A DNA stretch of 64,000 bases from a virus (Duplodnaviria; Caudoviricetes), in IMG/VR virus record IMGVR_UViG_3300010365_001171, positions 1-64,000 of that record, one strand, 5' to 3'. The position numbers and the translations under genes are program-made. Positions 1 through 39,289 of the stretch are shown here, in pieces (position 1 is the first letter of the stretch; each line of letters starts with the position of its first letter). Under the pieces are notes generated by a model. The model worked only from the letters and a program-made list of their open reading frames with translations, ran no database searches and had not been told where the DNA came from.

Positions 1-290
1 AAGATATGATTCACGAACCTAAAAAGTTGACACAGGCTTTAGATATAGTACTAAGCGATGTTAAAAATGCTGATAAAGAAGACATATTAATAGAATTTCA
101 GATTTACCTAAATGATCAAAAACTAATAAATAATCATGATTGGAATTTTGAAAAAGAGGCTAAAAAATTTATAAAACAAAGATAATAACTTATAAAAAAG
201 AATAAACTGTAAATAAGAAATGAAAGTCAAAATACAAACTTTGATATCATGTCTAAAGTCGGAAGTTATACAAGGTGCGAAGTCGCATCT

Positions 291-424
291 CACATAACGG
301 ATTCCAGCTAACCGAAGGCGGTGAATTAACAGAATAAAGTAACTTAAAAGCAGAAATATATGAATGAGCAATTAACTATCAAAAAAGCACGAAGCCACCG
401 CTTTTGGTTAGGTGGTGTTATGTG
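291..424. repeat. attC-like imperfect palindrome (site A, 134 bp)
   Basis: Left arm CACATAAC(291-298)..TAACC(309-313)GAAGGCGGTG(314-323) pairs with right arm CACCGCTTTT(396-405)GGTTA(406-410)..GTTATGTG(417-424); AT-rich variable centre. Confidence 0.6.
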
Positions 425-572
425 CCGCTTATTTCATCACATCAGGACTATTGAAGAATGTAAATTCATTGACAGAGTTGATGGTAGAGAAGTAGGGCAA
501 TATGAGTGCTGTCGGTGCAATAAAAGATTTATGTCTAATTCAAAACGCAGTTGGTTTCGTGTCTATAATTAA
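360..572 (+). CDS. small Cys-rich hypothetical protein, cassette-like (true start may be ATG 420)
   Basis: ORF track; stop is followed by GGTACATAAC (575-584), the inverse of GTTATGTGCC (417-426). Confidence 0.5.
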   Translation: MNEQLTIKKARSHRFWLGGVMCRLFHHIRTIEECKFIDRVDGREVGQYECCRCNKRFMSNSKRSWFRVYN

Positions 573-795
573 ATGGTACATAACTAGTCGCTTGCTCCAC
601 ATTTAACAACTTAACCAAAAACGCTCAACTTAAAACAAAAATAAAATGATAAAAGAACAAATTTTAGAAGCACTTAAACCATTTATGCTTGATAATCCGA
701 AAGCCAAATGGTAGGGGTTTGTGTTGGAATGGAGCTAAAACAATAGAAGAGATTAATTACAGTTATGGAACTACAATATGGAATAATTTCGGTTT

Positions 796-915
796 GCATA
801 TTGCCGAAGGTGGCGAATACGAAGTACAAACTTTCAAACTAAAACAAATGTATAATCGAAGCAAAATAGTTCATTTCAGCACTAAATCGCCACTTTTGGC
901 AATATGCTGTTATGC
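796..915. repeat. attC-like imperfect palindrome (site B, outer left box decayed)
   Basis: GCATATTGCC(796-805)GAAG GTGGCGA(810-816) pairs with TCGCCAC(887-893)TTTT GGCAATATGC(898-907), followed by GTTATGC (909-915). Confidence 0.55.
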
Positions 916-1211
916 GATGTGCTTTTTTAATTTTCAATAATATGAATAAATCAATAGAAATTAAACACTTTAGTTTGATAGACTACAATGTTCTATTAAA
1001 AGTTGTTGCTGAGTATGTAAAGCAATACCAAATTAGTAGAGACAAGTTTGAATACGAAAAAGATATGTTTGACTTAACCGATACACTATATGCTTTACAA
1101 TGCCATAAACACGCTGTGAACATTGAAATAGCGAACCATTGGAAGTCGTTTTGGGTAAAGGTTAAAGAAACTCAAACTAAGTATAAATTTGAAATATGGT
1201 ACGCTTCTTAG
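912..1211 (+). CDS. hypothetical protein in a cassette-like unit
   Basis: 99-aa ORF whose ATG lies inside GTTATGC; bounded by 14-bp inverted repeats 909-922 and 1211-1224. Confidence 0.7.
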   Translation: MRCAFLIFNNMNKSIEIKHFSLIDYNVLLKVVAEYVKQYQISRDKFEYEKDMFDLTDTLYALQCHKHAVNIEIANHWKSFWVKVKETQTKYKFEIWYAS

Positions 1212-1332
1212 CATATTGCATAACAAGGAGCTACCAACCACAACCCCCACACTAGAAGAACTAAAACAAGCCTATGCCGATGCAAACGGCTTGGATATTA
1301 ACGAAATAATTTACAAATAATAAAATGGTGTT

Positions 1333-1533
1333 ATGAATAATTTTTATACTGAAATATGTAATGCAAAAGAATTACATGAAGAAAAAGCAATCTGTATTAA
1401 GTATGATAAAGATTTCAAGAAAGTTAGAAAATGTATTAATATAGCAATGAAGCAACATATGATGTCTTCATTAACTTCTACAAAAGATTTTCATGAACTT
1501 ATTATTAACCATTTAAATCAAAATAAATTATGA
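1333..1533 (+). CDS. hypothetical protein
   Basis: 66-aa ORF; ATG again embedded in GTTATG (1330-1335). Confidence 0.6.
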   Translation: MNNFYTEICNAKELHEEKAICIKYDKDFKKVRKCINIAMKQHMMSSLTSTKDFHELIINHLNQNKL

Positions 1534-1649
1534 TAAAAGAATTTAAAGGAGAGTACAGTTGGTTAAGTAATTTTGCACCCGTTAATATTTTATTAGCCGG
1601 AAAAATTTATCCATCCGTAGAACACGCATTTATGTCAATGAAGGTATAG
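1530..1649 (+). pseudogene. truncated NADAR (YbiA-like) N-terminal fragment
   Basis: My translation: MIKEFKGEYSWLSNFAPVNILLAGKIYPSVEHAFMSMKV*; matches the NADAR F..Y..LSNF...Y.SVEH opening; remainder absent. Confidence 0.75.
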
Positions 1650-1699
1650 GTTCTAATCCTATAGTTTTTCTAGTATTTACAAAACAATCAAATCAAATT

Positions 1700-2041
1700 A
1701 TGGAACAAATAATTAAAGCAGAAGACTTAATAGGCAAAGAAATTCTTAAAACCAAGTACCATTATTCAGGATTTCTTATAATTTTTACAGACAATACTTT
1801 TTGTATTATTGAGGGTGAAGGGGAAGATAGTGAATACGCAAGTATAAAAAATTACAAAACAGATCTCACACCAAATAGTTATAATTATGATACTTTAGTT
1901 TTTTTAGGTATTTTAACGGAAGAAGATGTAAAAAATATAAAAGAAGAAGAGCAAAAAAAAAGAAAAGAATTTGCAGAGAGTAAAAAATACGCCGCTTATC
2001 TTGCCTTAAAAGAGGAATACGAAAACCCTAAAAAAACTTAA
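1700..2041 (+). CDS. hypothetical protein
   Basis: 113-aa ORF, co-oriented with neighbours. Confidence 0.7.
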   Translation: MEQIIKAEDLIGKEILKTKYHYSGFLIIFTDNTFCIIEGEGEDSEYASIKNYKTDLTPNSYNYDTLVFLGILTEEDVKNIKEEEQKKRKEFAESKKYAAYLALKEEYENPKKT

Positions 2042-2045
2042 ATAA

Positions 2046-2306
2046 ATGAGCACACAGACAATCTTAATATGTATAGCATCAGCATTAATTTTAAACCTTA
2101 TAATTTATTATACTATTAAAAGTAATAAAAACTGGAAAATTTATTACCAATTAGAAAAACGTTCCCGTAGAAATAAAAAAGAAATAGAAGAACTTTTAAA
2201 CGATATTTTTGTATTTATGACAAAAAAAAGTACTGGCATTATTTTAAAAGATAGATTACTTAATTTATATCACAGAGTAATGGATGAATTAATCACCCTT
2301 AAATAA
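2046..2306 (+). CDS. hypothetical protein with N-terminal hydrophobic anchor
   Basis: ILICIASALILNLIIYY segment. Confidence 0.65.
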   Translation: MSTQTILICIASALILNLIIYYTIKSNKNWKIYYQLEKRSRRNKKEIEELLNDIFVFMTKKSTGIILKDRLLNLYHRVMDELITLK

Positions 2307-2316
2307 AATTTATAAG

Positions 2317-2688
2317 ATGAAAAAAACAATTAAAAAACCTTTAAAAAAAGCTATTATAAAGCTAAAAATTTGGGCAAGAAAAGCGCAAAAAGCAAACTAT
2401 ATTGATAGAGGCTTTTCTAGCGTTGAGCAAGAAGACTCTTTTATTAAAAGTGTTGATATGGTAATTAGTAATTGTAAATATGTTAATACAGAACTACAAT
2501 TAAACTATATTAAAAAACAATTTGAAAAAAAAGTAGCCCTTAAAAACTTCAAAAATCCTAGTACGTTTGTAGTAGAGCAAAATTATAGATGTTTAAAAGC
2601 ATTTGAAGAAATTGAGAAAAAACTCTTAATCAAAAAAAGAGAAAAAGTTATTGGAAAAGGTATTACAAAGGGTGTAAATGTTAAGTAG
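2317..2688 (+). CDS. hypothetical basic protein
   Basis: 123-aa ORF. Confidence 0.6.
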   Translation: MKKTIKKPLKKAIIKLKIWARKAQKANYIDRGFSSVEQEDSFIKSVDMVISNCKYVNTELQLNYIKKQFEKKVALKNFKNPSTFVVEQNYRCLKAFEEIEKKLLIKKREKVIGKGITKGVNVK

Positions 2689-2914
2689 CACTAAAGTAGC
2701 TCTACTAATACTATTAGGGGAGCTTTTATACGACTTTGATAACTCCTATGATTATTTTGACAAAATAAAAATAAAAAGTAAAATAGACGCAGTTCATACA
2801 TTATTAGATTTACCTCTTATTAAACAACCTACTTTTTTACAAAAATTAACAAAAAAAAAGATATATAAATTAATAAAGTTAATTAGAGAAAACATTAAAA
2901 CTCTTTGTAAATGA
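2678..2914 (+). CDS. hypothetical protein
   Basis: 78-aa ORF overlapping the previous gene. Confidence 0.55.
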   Translation: MLSSTKVALLILLGELLYDFDNSYDYFDKIKIKSKIDAVHTLLDLPLIKQPTFLQKLTKKKIYKLIKLIRENIKTLCK

Positions 2915-2919
2915 TAAAT

Positions 2920-3670
2920 ACGTACTCGAAATGAGATGGGAAATTTTGTTTACATAAAAATACTAATTTTGGAATTAACCAGATGTTAAATGTCAGGGTA
3001 AAGGCAGCCAAACTCATTACATATCAGTGTTTCTGTTCAATGTGAGAAAGATGAGGTAACGGAGTAATCCTAGTATTTTTTAAAGTGTAAAAACATTGAC
3101 TACACTATAAATAAGAATGTCAGATGTAAGTCTGAATTTGTTGTTCTCTTGAGAAAAGGATACGAGTTATAATATTAGAAACAAGTCAAAGGTAATAGAT
3201 ACTTAAATCCTATAATATTATATACTGGTTTTACACAACAAAAATGAGCAGATAACTGCAAGGATTCTGATTATAAAAAGATTGAAGTGGCTTAATAAAA
3301 CCGAAAGCCTTGAAACTACTTAGCCATAGTAGGGTGTAGGAAGAAATTCCTTTAAAATCATCAAGCAACCGGGCATCTTTTTATAATTTCTCGGCAAGAC
3401 CCTACCTTTACTACCAAACACTTATACAGAAATGTAAGTAGAGTGCAGAAACAATAGAACAGTCTTTAATTAGATGGAAGAACTGGCTAGTAGAAAGGGT
3501 GCTAATAAAAAATTTAAAAACATTAAACCGCTGTAGTAAAGCTTCTATACAATAGATTAAGATAAAGGATAATCTCTATTGTGAAGTATCCTTGCTTGGA
3601 TCTTTTTTTCTTTAAACTATTTATTAGTATAAGGAATAAATTGTCTAAAAGACCCGAAAAACAGCGGTTT
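2920..3670 (+). ncRNA. large structured non-coding RNA candidate (GOLLD/ROOL-like size class, family unverified)
   Basis: ORF-free ~750 nt. Perfect stems 2956-2965/3071-3080, 3137-3144/3235-3242, 3168-3177/3213-3222, 3258-3265/3588-3595, 3329-3335/3399-3405, 3525-3534/3661-3670. GNRA-capped hairpins at 3061-3070, 3120-3135, 3338-3351, 3420-3439. Confidence 0.75.
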
Positions 3671-3684
3671 TTATTAAAACAAAT

Positions 3685-4479
3685 ATGATTATAGAAAAAA
3701 ATTTAGAGGGTAAATCAGGGGTATATTTTATAAAAGCATTTGATCTTTTTTACATTGGATCTTCAAAAAATGTAAGAAAAAGATTAATGAATCATTTTGC
3801 TCAACTAAAACGTCAGGGGCATTATAACAAACACTTACAAAAAGTGTAAGATGAAAATGGAGAGGCCATATTTACATATTCTATAATTATTTTTTGTTCT
3901 ATAGAAGAATTAAAAGAAAAAGAAACCTTTTATATAAATTATTATAACGCTTTTTTAAATGGGTTTAACCAATCAAAAGATTCTAAAAGTCCTCTAGGCT
4001 ATAAGCACACTGAAGAAAATAAAAAAATAATGTCTGATAAAAAAATAGGCATTAAACAAAAAGAAGAGTCAGTACAAAAAAGAGTTTTTAGTTTAAAAGG
4101 TAAGGTAAGAACAGAAGAGCACAAAGAAAATTATAGAAATAGTAAACTAGGAGAAAAAAACCCTATGTTTGGAGTAAAATTGACAAAAGAAGAAAGAATT
4201 AAAAAAGGTAGGGCAATGAATTCTGTAGAAAGGTGGAACACAGGCAAAAATAAAGATAATGATGAAAAACTTTATTTAATGTCTCAAAAATTAAAAGGAA
4301 GACCAGCAGTAAATAAACTTTATCATAAATTAATAAATTTAATTACTGGAGAAGCGTGGGAGGCGGATTCATTATTAAAATTATCAAAATTAACACCAAT
4401 TTCTAGTTCATCTTTAAGTAGGTTAAAAACTGAGACTTGTAGTAATAAAATTAAAAATAATTATAAATTAATATGGTAG
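3685..4479 (+). pseudogene. GIY-YIG homing endonuclease (NUMOD-type tail) with premature TAA
   Basis: ATG 3685 gives SGVYFIK..YIGSSKNVRKRL..H; single in-frame TAA at 3847-3849; frame continues into the tracked ORF 4030-4479. Confidence 0.85.
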
Positions 4480-5132
4480 AATTATTAGAATATTTTGGAA
4501 ATGATTTAATGGCGGCTAACTGTGCTAGAGTAAGTTATGGTAAAAGAAAAGAGGCATTTGATGAAAAAGACGAGAAACTGCTTAATTTTTTAGCCCGAGA
4601 AGATCATATTGCTCCATTTTACCACCCTAAAATACAGTTTAGGCTAAAAATCCCTATATACATTGAACGGCAGCTTACAAAAACTAGTGTAGGAGTTAAT
4701 TTAAATTCTGAATTAGATGTAGATATTAACAGTATTTCAGGGCGCTACGTAGATTTTTCAGATAGTTACGCACCAATTAAAAAATGGAGAAAACAATCTA
4801 AAAGTTCTAAACAAGGGAGTGAAGGATTAGTTGACGACCAGGATTACTGTGCACATATAGAAGCCAAAACTATAGAATTTTGTCAACAATCTTACAGAGA
4901 TTTATTAAGTAAAGGGGCAGCAAAAGAACAAGCAAGAGCTTTATTACCTTTAAATTTAAACACTGAATTTATTTGGACAGGGAGCTTATGGGCGGTTATT
5001 AGACTTTGTCAATTACGCTTAAAGCCAGATGCCCAAGAAGAAACAAGAGAAGTAGTTGAAAAAATGCTTGAAGCTGTAAAAAATATTGAAGGACAACCTT
5101 TCAAATACTCTTTAAAAGCTTTTGGTTTTTAA
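4473..5132 (+). CDS. thyX: flavin-dependent thymidylate synthase
   Basis: ARVSY, H..PF.H, NSISGRY, EQARALLP, RL..AQ.E motifs. Confidence 0.95.
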   Translation: MVELLEYFGNDLMAANCARVSYGKRKEAFDEKDEKLLNFLAREDHIAPFYHPKIQFRLKIPIYIERQLTKTSVGVNLNSELDVDINSISGRYVDFSDSYAPIKKWRKQSKSSKQGSEGLVDDQDYCAHIEAKTIEFCQQSYRDLLSKGAAKEQARALLPLNLNTEFIWTGSLWAVIRLCQLRLKPDAQEETREVVEKMLEAVKNIEGQPFKYSLKAFGF

Positions 5133-5490
5133 ATAATATTATTTTAAACCTAAAAAATTATAAGTAATGAATAAATTTGATAATCTTCCTGTTGAAATAC
5201 AGGAAAAAATGCTTGATAATCAAGTAAGTAGTGGTAGTATTATAAATATTAAAACAAAAGTAAATTCAAAGCTATTTAAATTTAAACTTTGGTACTTAAA
5301 AATGAGAAGACTATGGGGTTATTTATAGTTTCACTTTTCTTTTTATTTATGATATTATTAAGTGAAAATAAACGTAAAAAATATTAAAAGTTATTATTAT
5401 GCAAGATGTAATTGAGGAATTGTTTAAAATAAAAGAGTCTTATGAAGACATAAAAAAACTTCTTGAAGAGCTAAAACTACAAAATACATT

Positions 5491-6021
5491 ATGACTAAGT
5501 ATATAAGTATAGATGTAGAAAGTGATGGTCCCTTATTAGGAACTAATTCTATGGTCTGTTTTGGGGCTGTTTTAGTTGACTTAGAGGGTAAGCTGGAAAC
5601 AGATTTTTATGGGCAAGTTGCCCCTATTACAGGGACATACAATAAAGAAGCATTAAGTATATCAGGATTCACTAGAAAAGAACATGAAAATTTTCCATCC
5701 CCCGCTATTACCATGCAAAAATTTTATGATTGGTTAATAGATGTAAAAGAGGAAGATAAAATTGTATTCATATCAGACAACAATGGCTATGATTTTTCTT
5801 GGATTAATTGGTATTTACTAATGTATTCAAAAGAAAACCCTTTTGGTTGGTCTAGTAGAAGAATAGGAGATATGTTTTGTGGTTATAAACACAATTTAAA
5901 ATATCAGTGGAAAAAACACAGGGATTTAAAAAGATTCCCACATAATCATAACCCACTTTCTGATTGTAAGGCTAATGCTACAGCCTTTTTAAAGTTAAAA
6001 GATTTTGGATTTAAAATTTAA
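5491..6021 (+). CDS. DEDDh 3'-5' exonuclease
   Basis: ISIDVESDG, SDNNGYDF, HNPLSD motifs. Confidence 0.85.
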   Translation: MTKYISIDVESDGPLLGTNSMVCFGAVLVDLEGKLETDFYGQVAPITGTYNKEALSISGFTRKEHENFPSPAITMQKFYDWLIDVKEEDKIVFISDNNGYDFSWINWYLLMYSKENPFGWSSRRIGDMFCGYKHNLKYQWKKHRDLKRFPHNHNPLSDCKANATAFLKLKDFGFKI

Positions 6022-6026
6022 TTAAA

Positions 6027-6221
6027 ATGAGAAATTTAAATAATATATTACTCTTTGTAGTAATAACTCTTCTATTGTCAAGTTGTACTCTAGGAGAATT
6101 GGTAATAATGAATGGAAAAATTATTCTATTTACCATAATTGGTGCTTTCACCCTTAAAATAATTTTAATAGCTTTATATCATTTAAACTTTAAAGGTTGG
6201 AAGTACCCTAAAAAACGATAA
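6027..6221 (+). CDS. small membrane/lipoprotein-like protein
   Basis: Hydrophobic N-terminus with LSSC lipobox-like motif plus a second hydrophobic segment. Confidence 0.5.
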   Translation: MRNLNNILLFVVITLLLSSCTLGELVIMNGKIILFTIIGAFTLKIILIALYHLNFKGWKYPKKR

Positions 6222-6222
6222 G

Positions 6223-8226
6223 ATGAAAGTACTTTTTTATGTAGGGCTCTTTACGGGGGAAAGATTAACCCCCGCTGAAATTTTAGATGTAGCAGGTTTT
6301 TTATATAGATATGAAAAAGTATTTATAGTAAATAGAACGCCTGCTGAAAACATCAAAGAAAAAGATTATTATAAAAATGTAGATACTTCTTATTTACAAA
6401 CATCTAAAAAGTTTAAGCATTTATTTCCTCAGTTAGTTATAAAAACACTTAAAGACAGGGAAACAAATGAAGAATGGACAAGAGCTTTAAAAGATTTAAT
6501 AAATAAGGAGTACTTAAAAGAGCATGAAATTGTGCTACATTTTAGTTCTAATGTAAAGTACAAATTTATAACGAATTAACTGGTATTATTATGAAAAACC
6601 CTGAACAGTATTTTGATTTAATAAAGAAATCTATATTAAATGAGGTACATATTGTTAACATTCGCGGAAACCCTGTAATCTTACCCTCTCCTCAAAGAGT
6701 TGGTACAGACGCACAAAAAGAAGCCTATGCAAATCAAGCATCTAACAATTTAATCTCAAGTCTTCAAAAATTAGAGATTATTTAAATTTAAAATTATGAC
6801 TAAAGAAATTGCAATTAAATTCCAAGATAAAGAGTATCTTTTAAAGATCTCTGCTGAAATTCATATTATTTTTGAGGAGGAGAAACTTTTAATTAAAACA
6901 GATGTTTTTGATGTTTCTCAAGAATTACCTATTAAACGTAATATTCTTAATGTTATAAAAAGAATTAAAAATAAGACCTTTAAAAAAGTTCAAACAATAA
7001 TACATACCGATGTAATTTTTGTTAAAGGACATTTTTACTTTAATGAGGAACTTATAATTAAAGAAGTTTTAGAGACATTAGAAAAAACAATAGCTTTAAC
7101 GCTAATAAATTAAACTAAAAATGATCTTAAAAGGTAGCTTAATATTAAATAATAAGTTGGAAGATTATACCGCATTATTAAATGAAGTTAATTTAAGTTT
7201 TCGGATTTCTATTAACAGCCCATACTTAATGATTCAATTTACCTACGAACTGGATTTTAACAAAGTAAAAAATAAAATAGACAAACAAAATTATATAAGA
7301 ATTTTTAAACAGGAAATTAGAGGTGCAATTAGAGCAAAATATAGCAATACCTAAATTAAATTAAAATGGTAATGAAAATAAAAATGCATTTTTTTAACGA
7401 CCGTTATCGTACAAGGAGTTCAAAAACTACAACAACTTCTGACGTTAATATGTTAAAATCAATTTTAAGGACACTACCTTTTTTAGGGTTATTTAAAGAT
7501 AATTGGAATCTTTTTTACGGCCCGAGAAGCTCACCTTTTTTTAGATATGTACAATTGGATTTAAAAGACATAGAAAATATCACTGTTTTACTGGGAGAGG
7601 GTACAGTAGTACCAACAGAAATTCAAAGAATTGAATTATTTATATTAAAACAAAAAGTAACTTTATTTAAAAAAGCGTAAATGAAAATATTACAAAGCAA
7701 AGATTATCACAGAGAGGTAGTTTTTAATAACCACAACGGAGTTATAGTAACTATCTTAAATGAAAAAACTATTTACTCTTTAGGCAGTATTATTGAATTT
7801 CAAGGAAGACGGTATGAAATACTTGAAATAAGTTATAATGAGGACCATTTTAAGCTTTTTGCGACTTCCCTAGAAGAAGAAGACGAAGAAAATATAGTGA
7901 TACTTGATTTTAGCACTATAAAAGTATTAGAGAATAATTTAATAGACTCAGAAGGTACCAGGTTTAGTCTAGGCAATACTTTATATACTTATATTAACAA
8001 AGAATTAAAAAGTTTTGTATTTTCTATTGAAAATCTAGCAAATTTTAAAGAAGAAAAATACTTTTTAAGCGCAAAAGCAGCTGCGGTTGAAAAATTTATG
8101 CTAGAAGATTGTATAATACCAGAAGATTTTTTATCTTATGCTACTAATGTAGGTACCTTAACAAGCGGGGAGTATCACAAAGTAAAAAGAGTTTTAAAAC
8201 AATTTATAAAACAAATTATAAAATAA
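6223..8226 (+). CDS. run of six hypothetical ORFs (6223-6579, 6591-6785, 6796-7113, 7121-7354, 7366-7680, 7681-8226)
   Basis: Tightly packed co-oriented ORFs with ATG starts; no recognisable motifs. Confidence 0.65.
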
Positions 8227-13287: not shown

Positions 13288-14193
13288 ATGAAAGATATAA
13301 ATAAAAAAGAAGTAATTGCCAAATTACACAGTGAAGGTAAAAATGACAGTGAAATAGCTAAAATTTTAAATATTGATAGCACTTTAGTAATTTACTATAG
13401 AAAAAAGCTAGGATTAAAAAGTAATTTTTCTTATTCTAGTAAATTAGATAAAGTTAAAGAAGTATTAATAAAATTAGTAAATGAGGGGTACAGCGATTAC
13501 AGGTTAGAGCAAATATTTAATATAAACTATAACACTATATTTAATTATAGAAAAAAGTACGGTATATTAAAAGAAGATCTAAGACCTAATAAAGCAATAG
13601 AATTAACTCAATTTCAAAAAGAAGTGTTATTAGGAACATTATTAGGGGATGGTTCGATGCGTTTTGGTAAAGACCAGAAGTCTCCTTTAGTAATAATAGA
13701 ACACGGGAAAAAACAAAGGCCTTATGTTAAGCATAAATCAGAGGTTTTTGCCTCTTTAAATGCAAATTATAAGGAGTATAAAAGAAAAACTGTCGACGAA
13801 AGGACAGGTATTTTTTATGAATCTGGGGTATGTTTTATTCCAAGTAACCCTGAGTTTGTTCCTATTTATCATTCTTTTTATAAGGATAAAATTAAAAAAA
13901 TACCCTTTGATTTATTAAATAATTTTACAGCTGTTTCATTAGCCTATTTATTTATGGATGATGGTTCAAAAGCAAAAAGTGGTTATAATATTGCTTTAAA
14001 TGCTTTTAATATAGAAGAATTAACTAAATTTAGTTCTTTCTTATTATTAAAATTTAATATACAAAGCTCTGTGAATACTACAGGTACTTTGTACATAAAA
14101 GCAGAAAGTAAGGACCTATTTAAAAGTTTAGTACTACCATATATGCATGATACCTTACTTTATAAATTACATTACAGTCTCGTAACTTCGTGA
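13288..14193 (+). CDS. intron-encoded LAGLIDADG homing endonuclease with N-terminal HTH repeats
   Basis: LLGTLLGDGS and LAYLFMDDGS motifs. Confidence 0.9.
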   Translation: MKDINKKEVIAKLHSEGKNDSEIAKILNIDSTLVIYYRKKLGLKSNFSYSSKLDKVKEVLIKLVNEGYSDYRLEQIFNINYNTIFNYRKKYGILKEDLRPNKAIELTQFQKEVLLGTLLGDGSMRFGKDQKSPLVIIEHGKKQRPYVKHKSEVFASLNANYKEYKRKTVDERTGIFYESGVCFIPSNPEFVPIYHSFYKDKIKKIPFDLLNNFTAVSLAYLFMDDGSKAKSGYNIALNAFNIEELTKFSSFLLLKFNIQSSVNTTGTLYIKAESKDLFKSLVLPYMHDTLLYKLHYSLVTS

Positions 14194-18131: not shown

Positions 18132-19073
18132 ATGCCAGAAAACAAATTAAATATCTTAGTAGCAAGACACGGAAGACCGTCTCAAAAAAAAGTGTTTGAA
18201 AAAACAGAAAATTCTGAACTAATCATTAGATCAGCAATTTTCGAAGGCTTTGTCCACAGAAAAAATCCAGAAAATTTAAAATTAAGAAAAAAAGTTAAAA
18301 ATCTAAATTTAAAAATTGATTCCGGTATTTTAATTCGTTGGGGATGTACATCAAATGCCGATACATCAAATTGTATAGTGTATAACAAAGCTAACGCTAT
18401 TAAGTTGGCAAATGATAAGCTTGCTGCTAGAAAGGCCCTAGAAGCGGCTAATATAGCTATTCCAAAAACTTATTCTTTTTCAGATATTCAAAGTAATTCG
18501 TCTAATGTAGTTTGGCCTGTAATAGGCCGCCCTAAACAACATGGGCAAGGAAAAGAATTTCATATTTGTAATAATATACAAGAAGTTCAAAATAGTAGAA
18601 ATAATAAAAACTGTGTTTACTGGTCAGAAGTTTACCATAAAACCAGGGAGTTCAGGGTACATTGTATGCATGGTAAAATTGCCTCTATATTACAAAAGCC
18701 CTCACCCACAAACCCTGAATCACACGCTTGGAACTTTCACCAGCAACATCTTGCATTTCAAAATATTCCTCACAGTGATTGGAAAAATTATATTTGTAAA
18801 ACAGCTCTAGCAGCAGTTGAAGCATTGGGATTAAATTGGGGGGGCGTAGACGTGATGGTATGTGATAACTATCAAGAATTAAACGTACCTAGAATAGTAG
18901 TATGTGAAGTAAACACTGCTCCTACATTAACGTCTTCTGAATTTACTATGTCAAAGTATCTTAAATACTTTGAATGGTTAAGAAGACAACCCACAAGACG
19001 TGAACATTGGGATTGGAAATCTTATACAAGCCCAAAGTCTCATGCTTGGTTAGAAAGTCATTTTGAAAACTAA
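18132..19073 (+). CDS. ATP-grasp peptide ligase (RimK-like)
   Basis: DKLAAR, REFRVH, GGVDV, EVNTAP motifs. Confidence 0.85.
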   Translation: MPENKLNILVARHGRPSQKKVFEKTENSELIIRSAIFEGFVHRKNPENLKLRKKVKNLNLKIDSGILIRWGCTSNADTSNCIVYNKANAIKLANDKLAARKALEAANIAIPKTYSFSDIQSNSSNVVWPVIGRPKQHGQGKEFHICNNIQEVQNSRNNKNCVYWSEVYHKTREFRVHCMHGKIASILQKPSPTNPESHAWNFHQQHLAFQNIPHSDWKNYICKTALAAVEALGLNWGGVDVMVCDNYQELNVPRIVVCEVNTAPTLTSSEFTMSKYLKYFEWLRRQPTRREHWDWKSYTSPKSHAWLESHFEN

Positions 19074-19088
19074 AATTAAAAAAATAAT

Positions 19089-20879
19089 ATGTGCGGAATA
19101 GTCGCTTATTTAGGAAAAAATAAAATAGATATACCAAAGTTTAAATTGTTGTTATTGTTAAATAAGGACCGTGGGGGAGATGCAACTGGCATCTCCCTAA
19201 ATGGAAATGTTTATAAATCAGTAGATTCTATTGATACCTTTATAACAAAAAATACAATTAACTATTATAAAAAAGGTATTGCAATAGGGCATGTAAGGAA
19301 GAAGTCGGCTGGAATTAACTCTAAAGAACAGGCCCACCCTATTATAGTTTATAGTGATGGGGATACAATTAAGTACCAATCAACAGAAAAGCCGGAGTTT
19401 ATATTAGTTATGAATGGTACAGTAACTAATATTAAAGAGTTAAGTACAAAGTACGGTACTAAAATGTTAACGAATGATTCTGATTCTCAGCATATTGCAA
19501 AAATTTTACACAAGCTAGGCAAAGAAGATTTTATTAATTTTTTCTCTGAGTATGAAGGTGCTTGTACATCAATATTTTACTGGACTGATGAGCCAGGAAA
19601 AGTTTATATATCAAAGGACATAGAAAGACCACTATTTGTATATGAAGATGTAGCTGGTGATATTTGGTTATCTTCAAAGGAAGATAGTTTAACGGCTGTA
19701 ACTAGTTTTAGTGATGAAAAAGACTTTTCGATACAAAAATATCAGGACAATGCCATTCATATATATGAAAATTCCGTACTAACAAAAACCATTAAGTTCA
19801 AAAAATACATTGCACCCTTCTATTCAAGAGGTGAGATAGATTATAGTCCTGCACATCAGAGGAATTTTAATAAGCACATGTATAAAAGCAAATTGACTGA
19901 TAAATTATCTGGGCATATTAAAGATTCAAAAAGATTTCACGGAATAGAAATATTTTTTGATACCAACTCATTAAAATATTGTTTAAACCCAAAAAAACCG
20001 GAAGAATTTCTTCATGGCAGTCATAAACTACAAAATGGTGAAACATTTAATTTTTTATTTGGTAATCATATTACAGATGACGCTTTTTATAATGAGATGA
20101 TTACAGAATATCCAGATCTTGCATACAAAGCTAAATTTATAATACAGATGGCTCCAGTAGAGGTAAGTAATTATTCTTCAAACCCAGTAAAAGGTTTACA
20201 TAACATATATTATCAAAATAAATTAATAGGTGGATCTAGCTCTGTTGCGTTTAAATTACCTCCATGTGGTTTAATTGGAACTTGTTCTAGTAATATTACA
20301 ACTGTTTCAGAGTTGAATCTTTATTATTTTCAAGGAACATATAACTATGCTAGAGCTGAAATTATTTTAATCGTAGAAGAACTATTAGATAATCCAGATA
20401 TTGATTCATTAAGTCAATTATGGAAAACCGTAATTTTAAAAGCAGTAGAATCAAATATTATGGTTAACATGGATGAGTTTATTTTAGCTCTTTTACATGT
20501 ATTTTCTAACGTCTTAACTAAATACGAAGGGCTAAACTTTATTTGGCAAAGTGTAGTATTAGCTGAATTTAATATAATAAATGTTGAAAACACAGATTTA
20601 TTGATGATAATAGAAGAATTATTGTATTTAAGCTGCACAGAACTTTCGTCATTATTTAATTCTCCAGAAAGTACTATATTTCAGACATTTTTTATAGGAA
20701 CTAGAAAAGAGTTTTTAACACATCTCGAATCTGTAATACCAGCAAATAAATCTTGTTTTATTATAGGTATAATTACACTTTATGTGTTAGAGTTTATTTC
20801 AATAGACGACCTTTTAACAGGTTTAATAACAGAAGATGACATTGAATTGGAGACTTTGGCTTATACCACATTAACATAG
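19089..20879 (+). CDS. class II (Ntn) glutamine amidotransferase with long C-terminal extension
   Basis: MCGIV N-terminal Cys, RGGDATG, GHVRK.S, AHP, NGT, DSDS. Confidence 0.85.
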   Translation: MCGIVAYLGKNKIDIPKFKLLLLLNKDRGGDATGISLNGNVYKSVDSIDTFITKNTINYYKKGIAIGHVRKKSAGINSKEQAHPIIVYSDGDTIKYQSTEKPEFILVMNGTVTNIKELSTKYGTKMLTNDSDSQHIAKILHKLGKEDFINFFSEYEGACTSIFYWTDEPGKVYISKDIERPLFVYEDVAGDIWLSSKEDSLTAVTSFSDEKDFSIQKYQDNAIHIYENSVLTKTIKFKKYIAPFYSRGEIDYSPAHQRNFNKHMYKSKLTDKLSGHIKDSKRFHGIEIFFDTNSLKYCLNPKKPEEFLHGSHKLQNGETFNFLFGNHITDDAFYNEMITEYPDLAYKAKFIIQMAPVEVSNYSSNPVKGLHNIYYQNKLIGGSSSVAFKLPPCGLIGTCSSNITTVSELNLYYFQGTYNYARAEIILIVEELLDNPDIDSLSQLWKTVILKAVESNIMVNMDEFILALLHVFSNVLTKYEGLNFIWQSVVLAEFNIINVENTDLLMIIEELLYLSCTELSSLFNSPESTIFQTFFIGTRKEFLTHLESVIPANKSCFIIGIITLYVLEFISIDDLLTGLITEDDIELETLAYTTLT

Positions 20880-20882
20880 AAA

Positions 20883-22364
20883 ATGAAAAAAATTGAAATA
20901 GATGGTTGGAAATACAACCTTTCCGATCCTGAAATCGGTTTTGTAAAAAATCAGGGGTACAAAATTATAACAGGAAAGAATTATTATTGTGCATTAGATG
21001 AAAATTTAAGGTTAATATACTTTAAAAATGAAGGGTTTAATTTACAATTTTGTGTTCAATCCGCCTTAATTAATGAAAAGTTACAAACAGCAGAAGGAAG
21101 AGATTTAATAACAATAAATTTTGGAGCTATTGCTTCTAAAAACAATACACTAGCTATAAAAACAAAGTTAAAAAATAAAATTTGTAATGATATCTTTTTT
21201 ATAAATAGTGCTGCTGCTATTAAAAATGGGTTTATAGAATCTTTTTTAGATGGTATTTTTTATGAGAAAAATGAAATTTATGATTTAAGCTCTATTAAAA
21301 AAATTAATAATGTAAAACATTTTAATTTTAAAGATAAATACAATGTATCAGATTATAAAAAAGATTATTTAAAACAAATCGAAGAAGCGAGTAACGATGT
21401 AAAGTTTAAAAATAACTTTGATCTTTTAAAATTTTATCGTAAATATCTCAAAGATTTTTCTTTTGGCGTAGAATTAGAATTTTCAAATGGCTATATTAGA
21501 CCTGAAGATTGTTTTTTAAATAATTTTGTAGGATTACGAGACGGCTCAGTGGCTGAAACAGGATCAGAGTTAGCATCTTTACCGATTTTTGATTACAGAG
21601 GTATTCATAAAGTTAAAAATATGATGGAAATCCTTGAAACTCGTACTAGTGTAGATCATACTTGTTCTACACATATCCATGTAGGCAATTTACGTACAGA
21701 TAACCTATTTATTTCTAATATTTATAAAGTATTACTTAGTTTACAAAATGAGCTTTACCAAGCATTTCCTCAAACACGTAATCAAGAAGTGAACGGAAAA
21801 AGGTATTGTGCACCATTACCAAAACTAGATCTTACTTTAAACAGAGGAAATTTAAAATCTGGGTTGACTAAAAATGTTGAAAAAATATTTGCGAGTTCAA
21901 ATGGTGGAAGAGGCTATGAAAAAGCCCACTCTTCTTTAGAATTAAGACAAGTTGAAAACGGGTTGTTTAAAAAAGTTTTACGAGAAACATATTACTGTAA
22001 AAAATCAAACATTTCTGTTTATGATGGCATTCCTAAGTATAATATTCCAGCAAGGTACTTTATAGTTAATTTTTTTAATTTTCTACTTAAGCCTGTAAAA
22101 ACAATGGAATTTAGAATAATGGAAGGAACTTCTAGTTTTAACGCCTTTATTAATTGGGTATCATTAATTGTTGCAATAATTAAATACGCCGAAAAATTAC
22201 ACCCAATGAAAAACATTGATGGGTTAACTTTAAAAACAGTAATTTCTGATTATTTTGAAACAAAAGAAGCCTCAAAATTAATCACTTATTGGGAGAAAAG
22301 AAAAGAAATTTTTAAAGTAGACATTAAAAACAGTAAATTACTAAACGATTTTAAAATATATTAA
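20883..22364 (+). CDS. putative amidoligase (COOH-NH2 ligase, glutamate-cysteine-ligase fold)
   Basis: FGVELEF, DGSV, ELAS, CSTHIHVG, TMEFR motifs. Confidence 0.85.
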   Translation: MKKIEIDGWKYNLSDPEIGFVKNQGYKIITGKNYYCALDENLRLIYFKNEGFNLQFCVQSALINEKLQTAEGRDLITINFGAIASKNNTLAIKTKLKNKICNDIFFINSAAAIKNGFIESFLDGIFYEKNEIYDLSSIKKINNVKHFNFKDKYNVSDYKKDYLKQIEEASNDVKFKNNFDLLKFYRKYLKDFSFGVELEFSNGYIRPEDCFLNNFVGLRDGSVAETGSELASLPIFDYRGIHKVKNMMEILETRTSVDHTCSTHIHVGNLRTDNLFISNIYKVLLSLQNELYQAFPQTRNQEVNGKRYCAPLPKLDLTLNRGNLKSGLTKNVEKIFASSNGGRGYEKAHSSLELRQVENGLFKKVLRETYYCKKSNISVYDGIPKYNIPARYFIVNFFNFLLKPVKTMEFRIMEGTSSFNAFINWVSLIVAIIKYAEKLHPMKNIDGLTLKTVISDYFETKEASKLITYWEKRKEIFKVDIKNSKLLNDFKIY

Positions 22365-29895: not shown

Positions 29896-30002
29896 CCTTT
29901 AAGGTAAATTAAACAAATAGAGACGTGCAGAGACTATAATAGTGGGGACTTAACCATTTTATGGAAAGTTCAAGGGATAGTCCAAATAGAATAAAACTAT
30001 AG

Positions 30003-30692
30003 GCAGAGATACGTGTAGCAGCTTCTGATTCACAAGAATCAGTATTAATTAAAGGATTTTCAGAAGGATTAGATTTCCATAGTGTATTAGCACAGGTATC
30101 TTTTAGAATTATTTTAAACGACCCCGATTTAATTGTTACCAGCGAAATAAATAAACAATATAGAACAGCCCATAAAGCTGTCTTATTTGGTTATATTTAC
30201 GGCGGCGGACCACAAAGAATTAGCCAAATTTTAAATATTCCGATAGAAACAGCAAAGCTAGTATATATGCAACTTAAAAAAACATTACCAACTTTAGACC
30301 GTTATTTAACTGATAGTGCAAAATTTGCAACAAAAAATTATTACATAAATGGGTCAAAAAGAACAAATAGAAGAAGATGGTTTTCTGACTTTTTTGAAGG
30401 TAAGATGGAGGCGCATGAGGTAGAAAGACAAGCTAAAAATATGCCTGTGCAAGCAACCAATGCAGATATGATTAAAGAAGCAATTATAGAAGTTATAGAA
30501 TATTTTGAATCAATAGGAAATATTGCTAAACTTTTATTCACTGTACATGATGAATTAGATTTTGTTATACCAATAGGAAGGCAAGACATTGCAGAAAATG
30601 TAAAAAATATTATGGAGAACGTAGGAAATAAATATTTAACAAATGTAAAAATGGTTTCAGATTTAACAATAGACACATGCTGGAAGAAATAA
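30003..30692 (+). CDS. polA: family A DNA polymerase, exon 2
   Basis: AEIRVAA, RTAHKAVLFGYIYG (motif B), PVQATNAD, TVHDEL (motif C); spliced protein 649 aa. Confidence 0.92.
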   Translation, partial: AEIRVAASDSQESVLIKGFSEGLDFHSVLAQVSFRIILNDPDLIVTSEINKQYRTAHKAVLFGYIYGGGPQRISQILNIPIETAKLVYMQLKKTLPTLDRYLTDSAKFATKNYYINGSKRTNRRRWFSDFFEGKMEAHEVERQAKNMPVQATNADMIKEAIIEVIEYFESIGNIAKLLFTVHDELDFVIPIGRQDIAENVKNIMENVGNKYLTNVKMVSDLTIDTCWKK

Positions 30693-31300
30693 AGCCAACT
30701 CTTAGTATATATGCAGATTTTCCTCTACATTTACAGGAGTTAATTAAAGAAGAAGTAAAAAATCAAGGAAATTCTTTTAACCCTAGATCAAGTAAGTCAT
30801 CATCAAACGGGTTTCATTGGGCCTCCTCTATAATGGGGCCTGATTTTTGGGGTAGTATTTTAGAATACGGAAATATGGATAGACATATTTTTAAAGGGTC
30901 TATGACCATAGAAAAGTTAGGAGGTTTTAAAAATAACGGGTACGTTATACATGTATGTACTTCACCTGTAATACGCAGTTTAGGTGATTTATTTAGTTTA
31001 GAACTTTCAATTTTTAATAATTATCTAAACAATTTACATTTTCATCCAATAAATTTGGCTGAACTAGTAAGGTTACAAACATACAAAGAAGGTTATTTTG
31101 ATTTTTTTTGTATAAAAAATTTTTATTTAATTGTAAAATTCCCATTAAAAATTTTGTTAAGAAAGTTTTACGAACACTTCAACAAAGATTTTGATATTAT
31201 AGATATAAAAACACTTAACAAAAGGGAGCTAGTTATATATTTTTCGATATTGTTTAACTTAAAATTTATAAAGAAACACCCCATAAATGGATATTTTTAA
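30677..31300 (+). CDS. hypothetical protein
   Basis: 207-aa ORF with a F.W......DFW motif. Confidence 0.65.
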   Translation: MLEEIKPTLSIYADFPLHLQELIKEEVKNQGNSFNPRSSKSSSNGFHWASSIMGPDFWGSILEYGNMDRHIFKGSMTIEKLGGFKNNGYVIHVCTSPVIRSLGDLFSLELSIFNNYLNNLHFHPINLAELVRLQTYKEGYFDFFCIKNFYLIVKFPLKILLRKFYEHFNKDFDIIDIKTLNKRELVIYFSILFNLKFIKKHPINGYF

Positions 31301-36158: not shown

Positions 36159-38390
36159 TGAGACTATTTTTAGATAAGTATTATAGTACAGAAACAATAG
36201 CTGATTTATCAAAAAACGACACTTTTTTAATAAAAGAAGACAATAAAGTAGTTAAAATTGTTAAAGCTAGTTTATTATACGCAAGTTATCCTTGTGTGAG
36301 CTTTACAAAAGGTCACGAATTATTGGAATACTTTAAAGCTAATTATTTTAGGGTAGATGAAATTTGTCTTTCATACGAATCGGGGTTTAGTGATAAAGAA
36401 ATACCTAAAACCAGCATACAAAGTCAAAAATTAAAGGCAAAAGTAAGTTTATTGAATGGGCCAAGGATTATTGATATTATATCAAAATTTTGTGAGGAAA
36501 CTGAAATTATTGCTCCTATATTTTATATCCACGAAACTGACTTACTTAGATTAAATTTATTTAATAAAGGAATATGCAAAGAAAAGAAATAAAAAAAACA
36601 AAGTGTTTAAATACTAGAATTTGTAGGGCCTGTAATTCTTTTAGAAAGCCTAATTCTGTTTGTAAATGTTTACCAGTTAAAACGAATACTTTACAATCTT
36701 TGGATAAAAAACTAATAAAATTTTTTGTTGATAAAAATTGTATTTATATAGGAGACTTTTCTTGGAAAATCCGAAATAAAAATGTATTTATTAGTTTATT
36801 TTACGACACATATAAAGATTATTATATAGGAGTTAAACCAGAGTACAGAAAAAACTTTTCCGGTAAAACTATTTTAGTCAAGTATTCTATTTTAAATATA
36901 AGAAATGTAGATCACCTAGTAATTAAATCAATTTTAGTGGAAGAGGAGTATTTAATTTCTTGTGCCTCTATACATAAAAACGTAAAAGGAAAAAATTTTA
37001 TTACCGGGGGGTTACAAAAACCACAATCAAACGTAAAGATATTTACAAATTTAGTTTTAGTAGAAGGAAAATTTTATAAAAAATTATGATTATAAAAAAA
37101 GATGGCGTAATATTAAAAACGTATTTAAAATTATTTGCAAAATTTGGATTTGAGCCAGCATTAAAAACCGATATTACAGATACCCCAACAACAACTTACT
37201 CAGAATTATTTACTTGGGCAGAAAATTGCCTTCGTATAGAGATAATAATAGAAAACAGGGTTATAAAAATATATAACACAGATGGTAAATTATTAAAATT
37301 AAATACGGTATTAGAACATTCTGAGATGTTACGAAAAACTATGTATACTTTATACGTTTTTATGACTAAGAACATAATAGAGTGTTATAAATCATTTAAA
37401 TTTTATGGTAAATTTTACAAAGATTTTAATTCTACTATTTCTATGTTAAATTATAATTCTAAAGAAGTCTATAAAAGAAAGCTTAACACTAAAAAAGATT
37501 TTACTTTTAATGAGGTTTTATTAGAAGCAACACAAGACTTATTAAACAAATTATTATTTAGAGAATCTGTACAGAGTAGTAATAATACTTTTGCTGATAA
37601 AAGTTGTATAAAATTTGTCCAATCATTAAATGATGCGTGTAATTTTAATTTAACCTCAAATTTTCATGAGGACAAAAAAATTGAAGACACTAAAACAGAG
37701 TTTATTAGATTAGAAGCTCTTTTAAAAAGTCTTAAAGCTGAAAAAGTAAAAGGCCCAGAAAGTATTTTAAAAATAATTAAATCCTTTAAAACATTAACAA
37801 AACCAGTAATTTTCAAACAAATAAAATTTTATAAAGATGCTTAAAATAGGTGATATAGTTAGAGTAATAGATGACAAACAATATGAAAATCTAGAAGGAA
37901 AACCGGATTTAAAGTTAGGAGAAATTTGTTCTGTTCACAATTTACTTGTACACAATGGTTGTGTTCATGTGGATGTGGGTAAAAAAACGGATAAAAATTA
38001 TATAAGATGTAAACATACATTGGAAAACTTAGATTTAAATTTATTTAGGCAAAACACTGAATGGTGTTCACCAGATAGATTTGAATTAGTACAAAAATAA
38101 TGGTAAAAACATTTGAAAAAGTAATTTGTAACAGCAATATTATAAATCAAATAAATGCAGGGATTCGTTATTACAAAACACCCCAAATTTTTAGGCTTTG
38201 GTTCTATAAAACTAAAAATGATGTATCAATATCTTTATTTTATAGGCTTAATTTTAAAGAGGATAATAATATAAGACAAATCGTTGAATTAAGTGAGGTT
38301 TACGAAAAATCTCCTAAGTACAAAAAAGATTTAAACCAAAAGAAAAAAAATGTGGGGATTTTAAAAAAATTATTAACTCTATTTAAATGA
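36158..38390 (+). CDS. run of five hypothetical ORFs (36158-36592, 36574-37089, 37086-37844, 37837-38100, 38100-38390)
   Basis: Overlapping co-oriented ORFs; 36574 has a CxxC...CxC cluster. Confidence 0.65.
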
Positions 38391-39289
38391 GCGGAAAGCG
38401 TTATAACAAAGGTAAAATTAGGTATGATTTAATACCAACAGGTCCGATGAAATATTTAGGAGACACTTATACTAAAGGGGCCCATAAATATACCTTGTAC
38501 AAGGACTCAGATGGTAATTTTCATAAGGGGTCTGAAATAACTATCAAAGAATCTTTATCTATGGAAGTAATTGATTCTGGTGCCAATAATTGGCGTAAAG
38601 GTTTAAGCTTTATGGAAACAATTGCTTCTGTAGAAAGGCATATAAGTGATTGGAAAGTAGGAAAAGAAATAGATGAAGATTTAGGTACTGCAAATTTATC
38701 AAATGCTGCGTGGGGTTTATTTTCTCTTTTAGAATTAGGTAAAACTCATCCTGAAAAAGACGATAGACCCTTTTGGTTTAATAAACAGTTTAAAAAAGTA
38801 GTGTTAGATTTAGACGGTGTTGTAGGAGCTTTTGAAGAGCACTTAATTAATAAGGGCTATATAGATAAAGATATTCCTGTAACACACTGGCAAGACCCTA
38901 GAATAAAGCCTATTTTAAAAATTATAAAAGAAGATAAAGAATTTTGGGTAAGTATGCCATTACTTATAGATGTTAAAAATTTAAATTATCCAATTGCGGG
39001 ATACTGCACAGCTAGAAGTATACCCTTAGAATGGATAGAGGAATGGATGTTAATAAATTTAATACCACTTGCACCTATTTTAAAAGTAGATTTTGGGGAA
39101 TCAAAATCAAAAGTTTTAAAAGAATTTGGTTGTGATATAATGATAGATGATTCAATTGAAAATTTTGTAGATTTAAACAGTTCGGGAATTTCTTGTTTTT
39201 TAAAAACAAGGACACACAATAAGAATTACAATGTAGGAAACAGAAGAATAGATAATCTAGAAATTTTTTTAAATTCATTACAAGTATGA
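38387..39289 (+). CDS. DUF5664 (dATP/dGTP diphosphohydrolase-like) fused to a HAD 5'(3')-nucleotidase
   Basis: GKRYNKGK.RYDLIP, GA.KY, NW.KG, S.ERH, AAW; then LDLDGV...MIDDS. Confidence 0.8.
   Translation: MSGKRYNKGKIRYDLIPTGPMKYLGDTYTKGAHKYTLYKDSDGNFHKGSEITIKESLSMEVIDSGANNWRKGLSFMETIASVERHISDWKVGKEIDEDLGTANLSNAAWGLFSLLELGKTHPEKDDRPFWFNKQFKKVVLDLDGVVGAFEEHLINKGYIDKDIPVTHWQDPRIKPILKIIKEDKEFWVSMPLLIDVKNLNYPIAGYCTARSIPLEWIEEWMLINLIPLAPILKVDFGESKSKVLKEFGCDIMIDDSIENFVDLNSSGISCFLKTRTHNKNYNVGNRRIDNLEIFLNSLQV

Follow-up and report, generated by a model that had tools for sequence, protein, structure and literature searches.

A hairpin site family of Bacteroidota phages and chromosomes and the probable remnant of an integron-like cassette array in a viral contig

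Introduction

Classical integrons encode IntI, a tyrosine recombinase with an IntI-specific additional domain, beside their cassette arrays. The attC sites of these arrays are imperfect palindromes of 57–141 nt with an R'' box (RYYYAAC) and an R' box (GTTRRRY), and a cluster of two or more close attC sites with no integrase nearby is referred to as a CALIN.

Qi et al. 2023 (PMC9892861) described CALINs in virulent phages, and one site in that study, P12002L_attC1, passed only the HattCI search and was the sole site that IntI1 failed to recombine. Almost no integrons were found in Bacteroidetes by IntegronFinder 2.0. The rAID-1 elements of Bacteroidales (Ross et al. 2019, bioRxiv 10.1101/471110; PMC12247911) contain a gene for a XerD-family recombinase followed by co-oriented short genes; their repetitive intergenic motifs were described as 'reminiscent of integrons', and they are present in 226 of 423 Bacteroidales genomes. 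A further comparison is offered by the PeSLs of T4-type phages (Arbiol 2010, PMC2839356; Comeau 2014, PMC4122927), which combine a terminator, a sigma-70 promoter and a Shine-Dalgarno sequence and are exchanged by homologous recombination at scattered points, with cassette mini-circles having been seen. Literature searches on intergenic repeats of Flavobacterium phages and on attC-like sites in Bacteroidota returned nothing useful.

Sites and genes in the window

The window, the whole stretch of DNA that was analysed, covers positions 1 to 64,000 of an 85,117-bp viral contig whose G+C content is 29% and whose estimated completeness is 70%. As the array is at the very start of the contig, further sites may lie upstream in the missing ~30% of the genome. 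The host of this phage is probably a member of the Flavobacteriales, since the ribonucleotide reductase of the contig has its nearest relatives in those of Chryseobacterium phages. Seven of the 42 contig copies of GTTATG/CATAAC are inside the first 1340 nt, with 35 in the remaining 84 kb, and the motif is not enriched over the full window (34 observed vs 29.6 expected).

A preliminary description had noted two long palindromes in this region and read them as part of an attC-like array of gene cassettes. Both palindromes are present, in sequence and in arms, and both fold better than shuffled sequences. The observation is confirmed and the earlier interpretation is partly supported; there are two intact sites, but two other sites have decayed and the array is not a working one. 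The interval 295–1333 is best explained as a short orphan remnant of an integron-like cassette array, partly decayed, with the features listed below (R1 is a covariance model).

295..420, + strand: hairpin site 1, intact (sequence; fold; R1 111.5 bits, E 1.8e-25)
295–299, 300–303 and 304–323, + strand: TAACG box, spacer and 5' arm of site 1 (sequence)
324–395, 396–415 and 416–420, + strand: A-rich loop including ATG 360, 3' arm and TGTTA box of site 1
295..584, + strand: cassette 1, made up of site 1, the gene that follows it and the TAAC box (581–584) at which the unit ends (blastn sharing with loci L057, L058 and L072)
360..572, + strand: cassette 1 gene, 70 aa, Cys/His-rich (ORF list)
581..767, + strand: decayed site or cassette remnant (repeats, alignment)
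784..912, + strand: hairpin site 2 (fold; R1 126.7 bits, E 2.8e-29)
912..1211, + strand: cassette 2 gene, 99 aa (or from ATG 942) (ORF list)
1221..1333, + strand: decayed site, stem lost (sequence, repeats)
1333..1533, + strand: last small gene, 66 aa, after the decayed site; end of the array (ORF list)

Both intact copies have the form CCGAAGGNGGNG, exactly 72 nt, CNCCNCTTTTGG, in which the N positions change in compensating fashion. In site 1, positions 304–323 pair with 396–415 and the outer TAAC (295–298) pairs with GTTA (417–420). The stem of site 2 is also intact (796–816 with 887–907, 21-nt arms that are 90% complementary) and is followed by TGTTA at 908–912; blastn with this site matched about 35 loci, with the similarity confined to 790–913. 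The 5' box of site 2 is TAA-TTT-CG (784–791) and not TAACG. RNA folds of sites 1 and 2 have z-scores of −4.65 and −4.47, and none of 200 shuffles was equally good. As single-stranded DNA the + strand folds better than the − strand: −14.8 (site 1) and −22.2 kcal/mol (site 2, z −4.18), against −9.1 and −17.7 kcal/mol for the − strand. The opposite strand of the window sites scores about 30 bits with R1, compared with 111–127 bits. Across the 85-kb contig R1 identifies two intact sites only (284–435, 111.5 bits; 773–927, 126.7 bits); these are 489 nt apart in a contig without a recombinase.

The cassette 1 gene starts inside the hairpin loop, and its coding sequence includes the 3' arm; the ATG at 360 and its frame are kept in the three loci L057, L058 and L072. 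The overlap with GTTATG that was first described for the ATGs at 420, 912 and 1333 is present, but 420 is not the conserved start of the first gene, which is the loop ATG at 360. The boxes that had been noted after stop codons, at 575–584 and 1211–1224, are true TAAC boxes. In cassette 2 the stop codon (TAG, 1209–1211) is within a flank motif, TAGCATATTGCATAAC, that fits the family consensus AGCATTGCnnnTAACG. Protein-family searches gave no match that reaches a cut-off for the cassette 1 gene, and none for the cassette 2 gene.

We refer to 581–767 and 1221–1333 only as decayed remnants because their boxes are kept but neither a significant model score nor a significant fold is found. The first retains TAAC at 581–584 and GTTA at 762–765, with an arm-like segment (598–623) and a loop-like segment (617–647) similar to sites 1 and 2; it has no R1 match and its fold is not significant (z −1.38). 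The second retains TAAC at 1221–1224 and TGTTA at 1329–1333, with a fold that is not significant (z −1.30) and an R1 score of 11.1 bits (E 2.1) at 1288–1348. With one of the two intact sites having a damaged TAAC box and two further sites decayed, the local array is probably eroding.

A scan of positions 1–1600 for promoters of the sigma-70 type, as distinct from Bacteroidota types, gave 9 promoter-like sites where 9.1 are expected, and there are no terminator-like sites in the same interval. Rfam searches of window positions 1–8000 and of a 9-kb array, at permissive E-values, gave noise only and no family.

Several other origins for the palindromes were considered and rejected. Chance is ruled out by the z-scores of the folds, by model E-values of 1e-25 to 1e-29 and by hundreds of homologues. 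Coding conservation is not the cause, as more than one reading frame is used over the same nucleotides (PTFGN.. vs HRFWLGG..) and many copies have stops in all frames. An intron or a translational bypass within a conserved gene is excluded by upstream ORFs that end at or before TAACG and by flanks that are unrelated between contigs. An invertible promoter (inverton) is a poor fit with the fixed G.T asymmetry of the arms and with arrays of one site per gene. The 72-nt spacing prompted a search for a tRNA-like element, and ARAGORN found none.

Structure and covariation of the site family

An alignment of 76 copies has a common plan: TAACG, an unpaired spacer of 4–5 nt that faces 1–2 nt on the other side, a 19-bp stem that carries two fixed G.T wobbles, an A-rich loop of ~72 nt, and TGTTA. 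The modal site length is 126 nt. Pairing is found in 97% of cells over the 76 sequences, against 41–52% in controls with slid partners, and changes on both sides of a pair number 171 compared with 53.5 ± 6.1 in shuffles. Among 132 nhmmer matches that had not been selected by the search pattern, neither TAACG nor TGTTA varies. The site family is conserved and covarying, with the outermost stem pairs mismatched in some copies.

The TAACG strand has 322 G.T pairs and 29 A.C pairs, although this count is weaker than it appears because 272 of the 322 come from two wobble columns imposed by the search pattern and the model, and without these the numbers are 50 and 29. The preliminary description had taken GTTATGY as a near-consensus core; this does not hold for the family, where only GTTA of GTTRRRY is conserved and the other positions are free. 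The 7–8 nt after TAACG vary between otherwise identical copies, with identities of 0.43–0.74 against at least 0.95 elsewhere; we suggest that this segment may be the overlap region between two recombinase-binding arms.

Distribution and arrays

A two-box pattern was used to search IMG/VR, where it identified at least 119 loci, and a collection of species genomes, where it identified at least 120 loci, nearly all of them in Bacteroidota. R1 gave 428 matches in 100 viral loci, some of which are weak minus-strand echoes of a site, and the nhmmer sites within any one viral locus are all on the same strand. The viral arrays reach 19 sites, in the complete 32.5-kb phage G001, where they occupy 8.7 kb (L120, 4117–12799) and each small gene is preceded by a site. 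Its array includes two genes for DNA methyltransferases, and this phage also encodes a terminase, a tape-measure protein, a replication initiator and an Erf-like annealing protein.

The family reaches the Flavobacteriales, Chitinophagales, Sphingobacteriales and Cytophagales, and lytic phages are also included. In a sample of 101 genomes of the order to which G009 belongs (recorded as Bacteroidales), 56 have an R1 match. In one metagenome-assembled Bacteroidota chromosome (CP058707.1) the array spans about 507 kb (3,475,203 to 3,982,512) and holds at least 150 matches, all on one strand. Cassettes in bacteria encode SUKH, DUF6985, LRR, Fic/DOC, DUF4241 and DUF4279 proteins. Searches of cultured phages by megablast and blastn gave no match, and it was the covariance model alone that found short relatives in Polaribacter phage P12002L, where P12002L_attC1 is a short relative of this family.

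Many phages of Bacteroidota type, and Bacteroidota chromosomes as well, carry the sites in arrays on a single strand, with one small gene between sites. The proposal that the hairpins are integron-like cassette-boundary sites is supported.

Gene orientation and start codons

In the phage loci the genes are sense relative to TAACG→TGTTA (162 vs 6), whereas the cassette genes of bacterial arrays are antisense to it (97 vs 12). The stop codon of the upstream phage gene is at the TAA of TAACG or 11–13 nt earlier, and the start of the downstream gene is usually inside the loop, which makes the 3' arm coding, or otherwise just past TGTTA; the frame differs by subfamily. The phage unit is a hairpin followed by a gene, with the site reversed relative to the gene when compared with bacteria. 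A mobile unit consisting of a gene followed by its own site, as first envisaged for the window, is not what is seen there, and the unit is the hairpin with its downstream gene (295–584).

In classical integrons the gene precedes attC on the top strand, and the bacterial arrays of this family conform to that order but the phage loci do not. In integron terms the bacterial arrays are gene-then-site, and the folding strand is the bottom strand.

Cassette borders

Borders were compared using 193 sites with 200-nt flanks. In 54 pairs the upstream sequences are unrelated while the site and the downstream gene are shared, and the opposite pattern is seen in 5 pairs. Forty-two of the 54 breaks are within −18 to +7 of the T of TAACG and about 8 are at the TGTTA end instead; the reverse pairs all break right after TAACG (5 of 5).

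Cassette 1 is shared with L058 (92% identity, 291–584), L072 (91%, 294–584) and L057 (86%, 294–569). In all three the homology sets in at the first TAAC box, and neither flank is related. The homology ends exactly at the second TAAC in L058 and L072, and in L057 it reaches the second box if a 5-nt gap is allowed. Comparison with relatives had been set beforehand as the decisive test of the claim that boundaries lie at the core; its outcome favours such cassettes, with homology breaks at TAAC/GTTA and the cassette at 295–584 running from box to box. Judged from homology breaks, the cassette borders lie at the TAACG box (CGTTA on the other strand), to within a range that does not place the exact nucleotide.

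Recombinases beside the arrays

The preliminary description reported no integrase in the window, and this extends to the whole 85-kb contig, in which neither a PF00589 search nor tblastn identified a tyrosine recombinase. PF00589 searches of five phage records, including this contig and a complete one, likewise identified no recombinase. In the bacterial arrays a Xer/IntI-like gene marks the end, which is always on the TGTTA side. Examples are the array ends of Chryseobacterium sp. FH1 (L244, 16723–17838, 371 aa) and CP058707.1 (L248, 15783–16898, 371 aa), and a recombinase homologue at the array end of Pedobacter glucosidilyticus; by genome label the 371-aa genes are at array ends in G005 and G006, and the homologue is in G008. 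A tblastn search of 118 viral loci identified homologues of 264 and 283 aa in two of them, L033 and L047, in both cases at the same array end.

The best NCBIfam matches of the two 371-aa proteins are to XerA/integron integrase at 208–211 bits (cut-off 220), and they score 178–181 bits against the integron integrase model TIGR02249 (cut-off 265), for which the range over the array-adjacent recombinases is 145–181 bits. The TIGR02249 match is in two stretches that skip profile positions ~178–240, the place of the IntI extra domain. A Xer/IntI-like tyrosine recombinase without the IntI-specific insert is thus encoded at the end of the arrays in bacteria and in some phages. Identification of the locus with a classical integron is not sustained, the recombinases of its relatives being below the IntI cut-offs and without the IntI-specific region. 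The suggestion of a host or distant-phage recombinase fares better, as there are array-adjacent tyrosine recombinases in related phages and in Bacteroidota that could act in trans.

Discussion

The explanation that we favour, with a probability of roughly two in three, is an integron-like cassette array with ~126-nt hairpin sites and a Xer-type recombinase, of which the window holds an orphan remnant. Each unit would begin with a ~126-nt site, continue with one small gene and end at the next TAAC box. The TAACG→TGTTA strand is predicted to fold as single-stranded DNA, like the bottom strand of attC, and the recombinase would bind the TAAC/GTTA base and the long stem and cut at or just after TAAC|G, such that cassettes could be excised or inserted as circles. 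Every step of this recombination chemistry we infer from sequences. The phage hairpin may also form in early mRNA, because the phage site lies upstream of its gene, and would there offer a start codon in an open A-rich loop. The cassettes of this contig may have been placed in the past, or may be moved by a recombinase of the host or of a co-infecting phage, or by homologous exchange between sites.

Some observations sit less comfortably with this explanation. Neither this contig (70% complete) nor four other phage records, one of them complete, has a recombinase, and homologous exchange could suffice, given that the complete phage without a recombinase encodes an Erf-like annealing protein. 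The variability of the spacer after TAACG is not predicted by a crossover at TAAC|G, and about 8 of 54 breaks are at the TGTTA end. The sense bias of the phage genes and the start codon in the loop could mean a function selected at the RNA level, and there are only two intact sites in the window.

We lean slightly towards a broader proposal, in which one 126-nt site family and a short Xer-like recombinase constitute a second, phylum-wide kind of integron. It would operate in Bacteroidota chromosomes (in arrays of up to ~0.5 Mb with immunity-type genes, rAID-1 being the gut branch) and in virulent phages, where the cassettes are reversed and the hairpin is a 5' leader with the start codon in its loop. 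The phages, most of them having lost the enzyme, would borrow it in trans to shuffle early and anti-restriction genes. If so, integron-style gene capture is not bound to IntI or to Proteobacteria, and another tyrosine recombinase with another folded site serves a whole phylum and its lytic phages. It would also explain the turnover of small early phage genes, such as the arrayed methyltransferases, and a start codon within a recombination hairpin, with the phage genes reversed, would join a DNA site to a translation signal in an unusual way. Standard tools of the IntegronFinder type appear to miss such arrays, and a large cassette pool therefore goes uncounted (one chromosomal array is ~507 kb). 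The value of the window itself is modest, being a small, eroding remnant without a recombinase, yet it has one clean cassette shared from box to box.

Of the other explanations, the one that we regard as unlikely, though the least so, is that the hairpins are recombination linkers like the PeSLs, with no dedicated enzyme, where the hairpins are simply the longest shared sequence and general phage recombination (e.g. Erf-type annealing) swaps the modules. T4-type PeSLs provide the precedent (PMC2839356, PMC4122927), most of the array-bearing phage records show no recombinase, and the complete phage G001 encodes an Erf-like protein. Exchange between sites of the same subfamily would also yield breaks near the 5' arm, and occasional mismatches in the outermost pairs are expected of mosaics. 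However, the breaks cluster at the TAACG end and are not spread over both arms, which are equally conserved, and cassette 1 is bounded by TAAC on both sides in four contigs. One recombinase family is found at the same array end in bacteria and in two phages, and the window sites have neither a sigma-70 promoter nor a terminator signal.

We consider it improbable that the hairpin is primarily an RNA element of early phage transcripts, either an intercistronic hairpin that exposes the start codon of the next gene in an A-rich loop or a processing or stability signal, with the cassette-like borders a side effect. Bacteroidota ribosomes do not use Shine-Dalgarno pairing, and the sense orientation of the phage genes (162 vs 6), the start codon in the loop in most copies, the upstream stop at or just before TAACG, the G.U pairs that favour the sense strand and the RNA folds (z about −4.5) would all accord with such a role. 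It does not account for the array-end recombinases or the box-to-box identity of cassettes, though, and the same family is antisense to the genes in bacterial arrays (97 vs 12), in many copies the gene starts only past the hairpin, and there is no Rfam match. We note that an RNA role could coexist with a DNA role. Classical attC sites (a true CALIN) recombined by a host IntI seem very improbable, although the layout (R box, unpaired spacer, long stem, variable loop and TAAC/GTTA ends) is the same, Qi et al. 2023 list a CALIN in Polaribacter phage P12002L (PMC9892861), and the sites of phage PH101, as read from the primers in that paper, end TAACG...TTGTTAT and were recombined by IntI1. The array-adjacent recombinases are under the IntI cut-offs with the IntI-specific region skipped, and only GTTA of GTTRRRY is conserved. 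Moreover, P12002L_attC1, the relative of this family, is a HattCI-only site that IntI1 did not recombine, and IntegronFinder 2.0 finds almost no integrons in Bacteroidetes, though these arrays are common there.

Comparison with known systems

The similarity to PeSLs is in repeated intergenic stem-loops between small non-essential early genes that mark points of insertion, deletion and replacement. The hairpin of this family is far longer than a PeSL, however, its end boxes are fixed, it has no promoter or terminator signal, and its relatives have a dedicated recombinase.

The bacterial relatives share with rAID-1 their architecture and their SUKH and other immunity-type cassettes, and the prevalence is about half of Bacteroidales in both cases (226 of 423 genomes in that paper and 56 of 101 here). 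The rAID-1 motif, which was published as a figure, may well be the same as this site. Whereas rAID-1 has been described only for Bacteroidales chromosomes and for immunity genes, the family described here spans more orders and also lytic phages, in which the genes are oriented the other way, and the window is phage DNA with neither a recombinase nor immunity genes.

There are close parallels with integrons and CALINs, in which imperfect palindromes likewise form arrays on one strand, single genes separate the sites, and each site combines TAAC...GTTA ends with an unpaired spacer, a long stem, a loop of variable sequence and size, and one strand that folds better. As in integrons, borders are at a G|TTA core on the attC top strand and a tyrosine recombinase is at one fixed array end; as with CALINs, there are orphan arrays without a recombinase in this family. 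The departures are a recombinase of Xer/XerA-like type that scores under the IntI cut-offs and has no IntI extra domain, a 7-nt core in which only GTTA is fixed, a site that is homogeneous at 126 nt, and a hypervariable spacer beside the core. In phages, furthermore, the gene lies on the strand that folds, its start codon is in the loop and the site comes before it. Our reading is that the sites function like an attC array (CALIN-like) but belong to a distinct, probably Xer-run system and not to a classical integron.

Variation in the hairpin site and other genes of the window

In all copies of the hairpin site, the ~126 nt element that borders the cassettes, the stretch of 7–8 nt directly 3′ of TAACG (window 300–306) is hypervariable, differing even where two copies are otherwise identical. 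The box of site 2, the second intact site of the cassette remnant, reads TAA-TTT-CG (window 784–791), whereas TAACG is invariant in the family, and the change may be an inactivating 3-nt insertion. Other features of the window are:

1530–1649: 39-aa ORF directly after the cassette remnant, NADAR / phrog_1017 match (E 1.5e-8)
3685–3849 and 4030–4479: GIY-YIG catalytic head and NUMOD3 DNA-binding tail, as separate ORFs
13288–14193: 301-aa ORF, LAGLIDADG homing-endonuclease match (phrog_11023, 2.7e-16)
18132–22364: three neighbouring genes matching RimK-like glutaminyl transferase, glutamine amidotransferase and amidoligase
40466–63835, minus strand: four consecutive very large ORFs (1526, 2678, 1157 and 1789 aa)

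Similarity of the 39-aa ORF to NADAR / phrog_1017 proteins is confined to their N-terminal quarter, and it looks like a truncated gene. The GIY-YIG and NUMOD3 pair looks like a split homing endonuclease and lies directly upstream of an ORF (4473–5132) that, judged by its sequence, looks like thymidylate synthase ThyX; the LAGLIDADG-matching ORF has replication genes around it. The genes at 18132–22364 may constitute a modification pathway.

Related arrays in Bacteroidota and short site relatives in phage P12002L

In the Bacteroidota MAG chromosome CP058707.1, coordinates 3,475,203–3,982,512 are occupied by one hairpin array of ~507 kb, all on the same strand, with a 371-aa Xer/IntI-like gene 3.3 kb from its end and IS30-like fragments in the intervening gap. 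At an IS3-like insertion, a hairpin array in a Bacteroidales MAG (L249, 9257–11006) switches to the opposite strand, a pattern suggestive of an IS-mediated inversion within the array.

Short relatives of the site (75–150 nt) are present in Polaribacter phage P12002L (L123):

29993–30067, 30894–30966, 38020–38101, 38864–38947 and 39107–39256, gene strand: short site relatives

These are situated between methyltransferase and small genes, and several have ends of the ATTGC..CTAACGG and TTGTTAGG type. One among them is the published P12002L_attC1 (Qi et al. 2023, PMC9892861).
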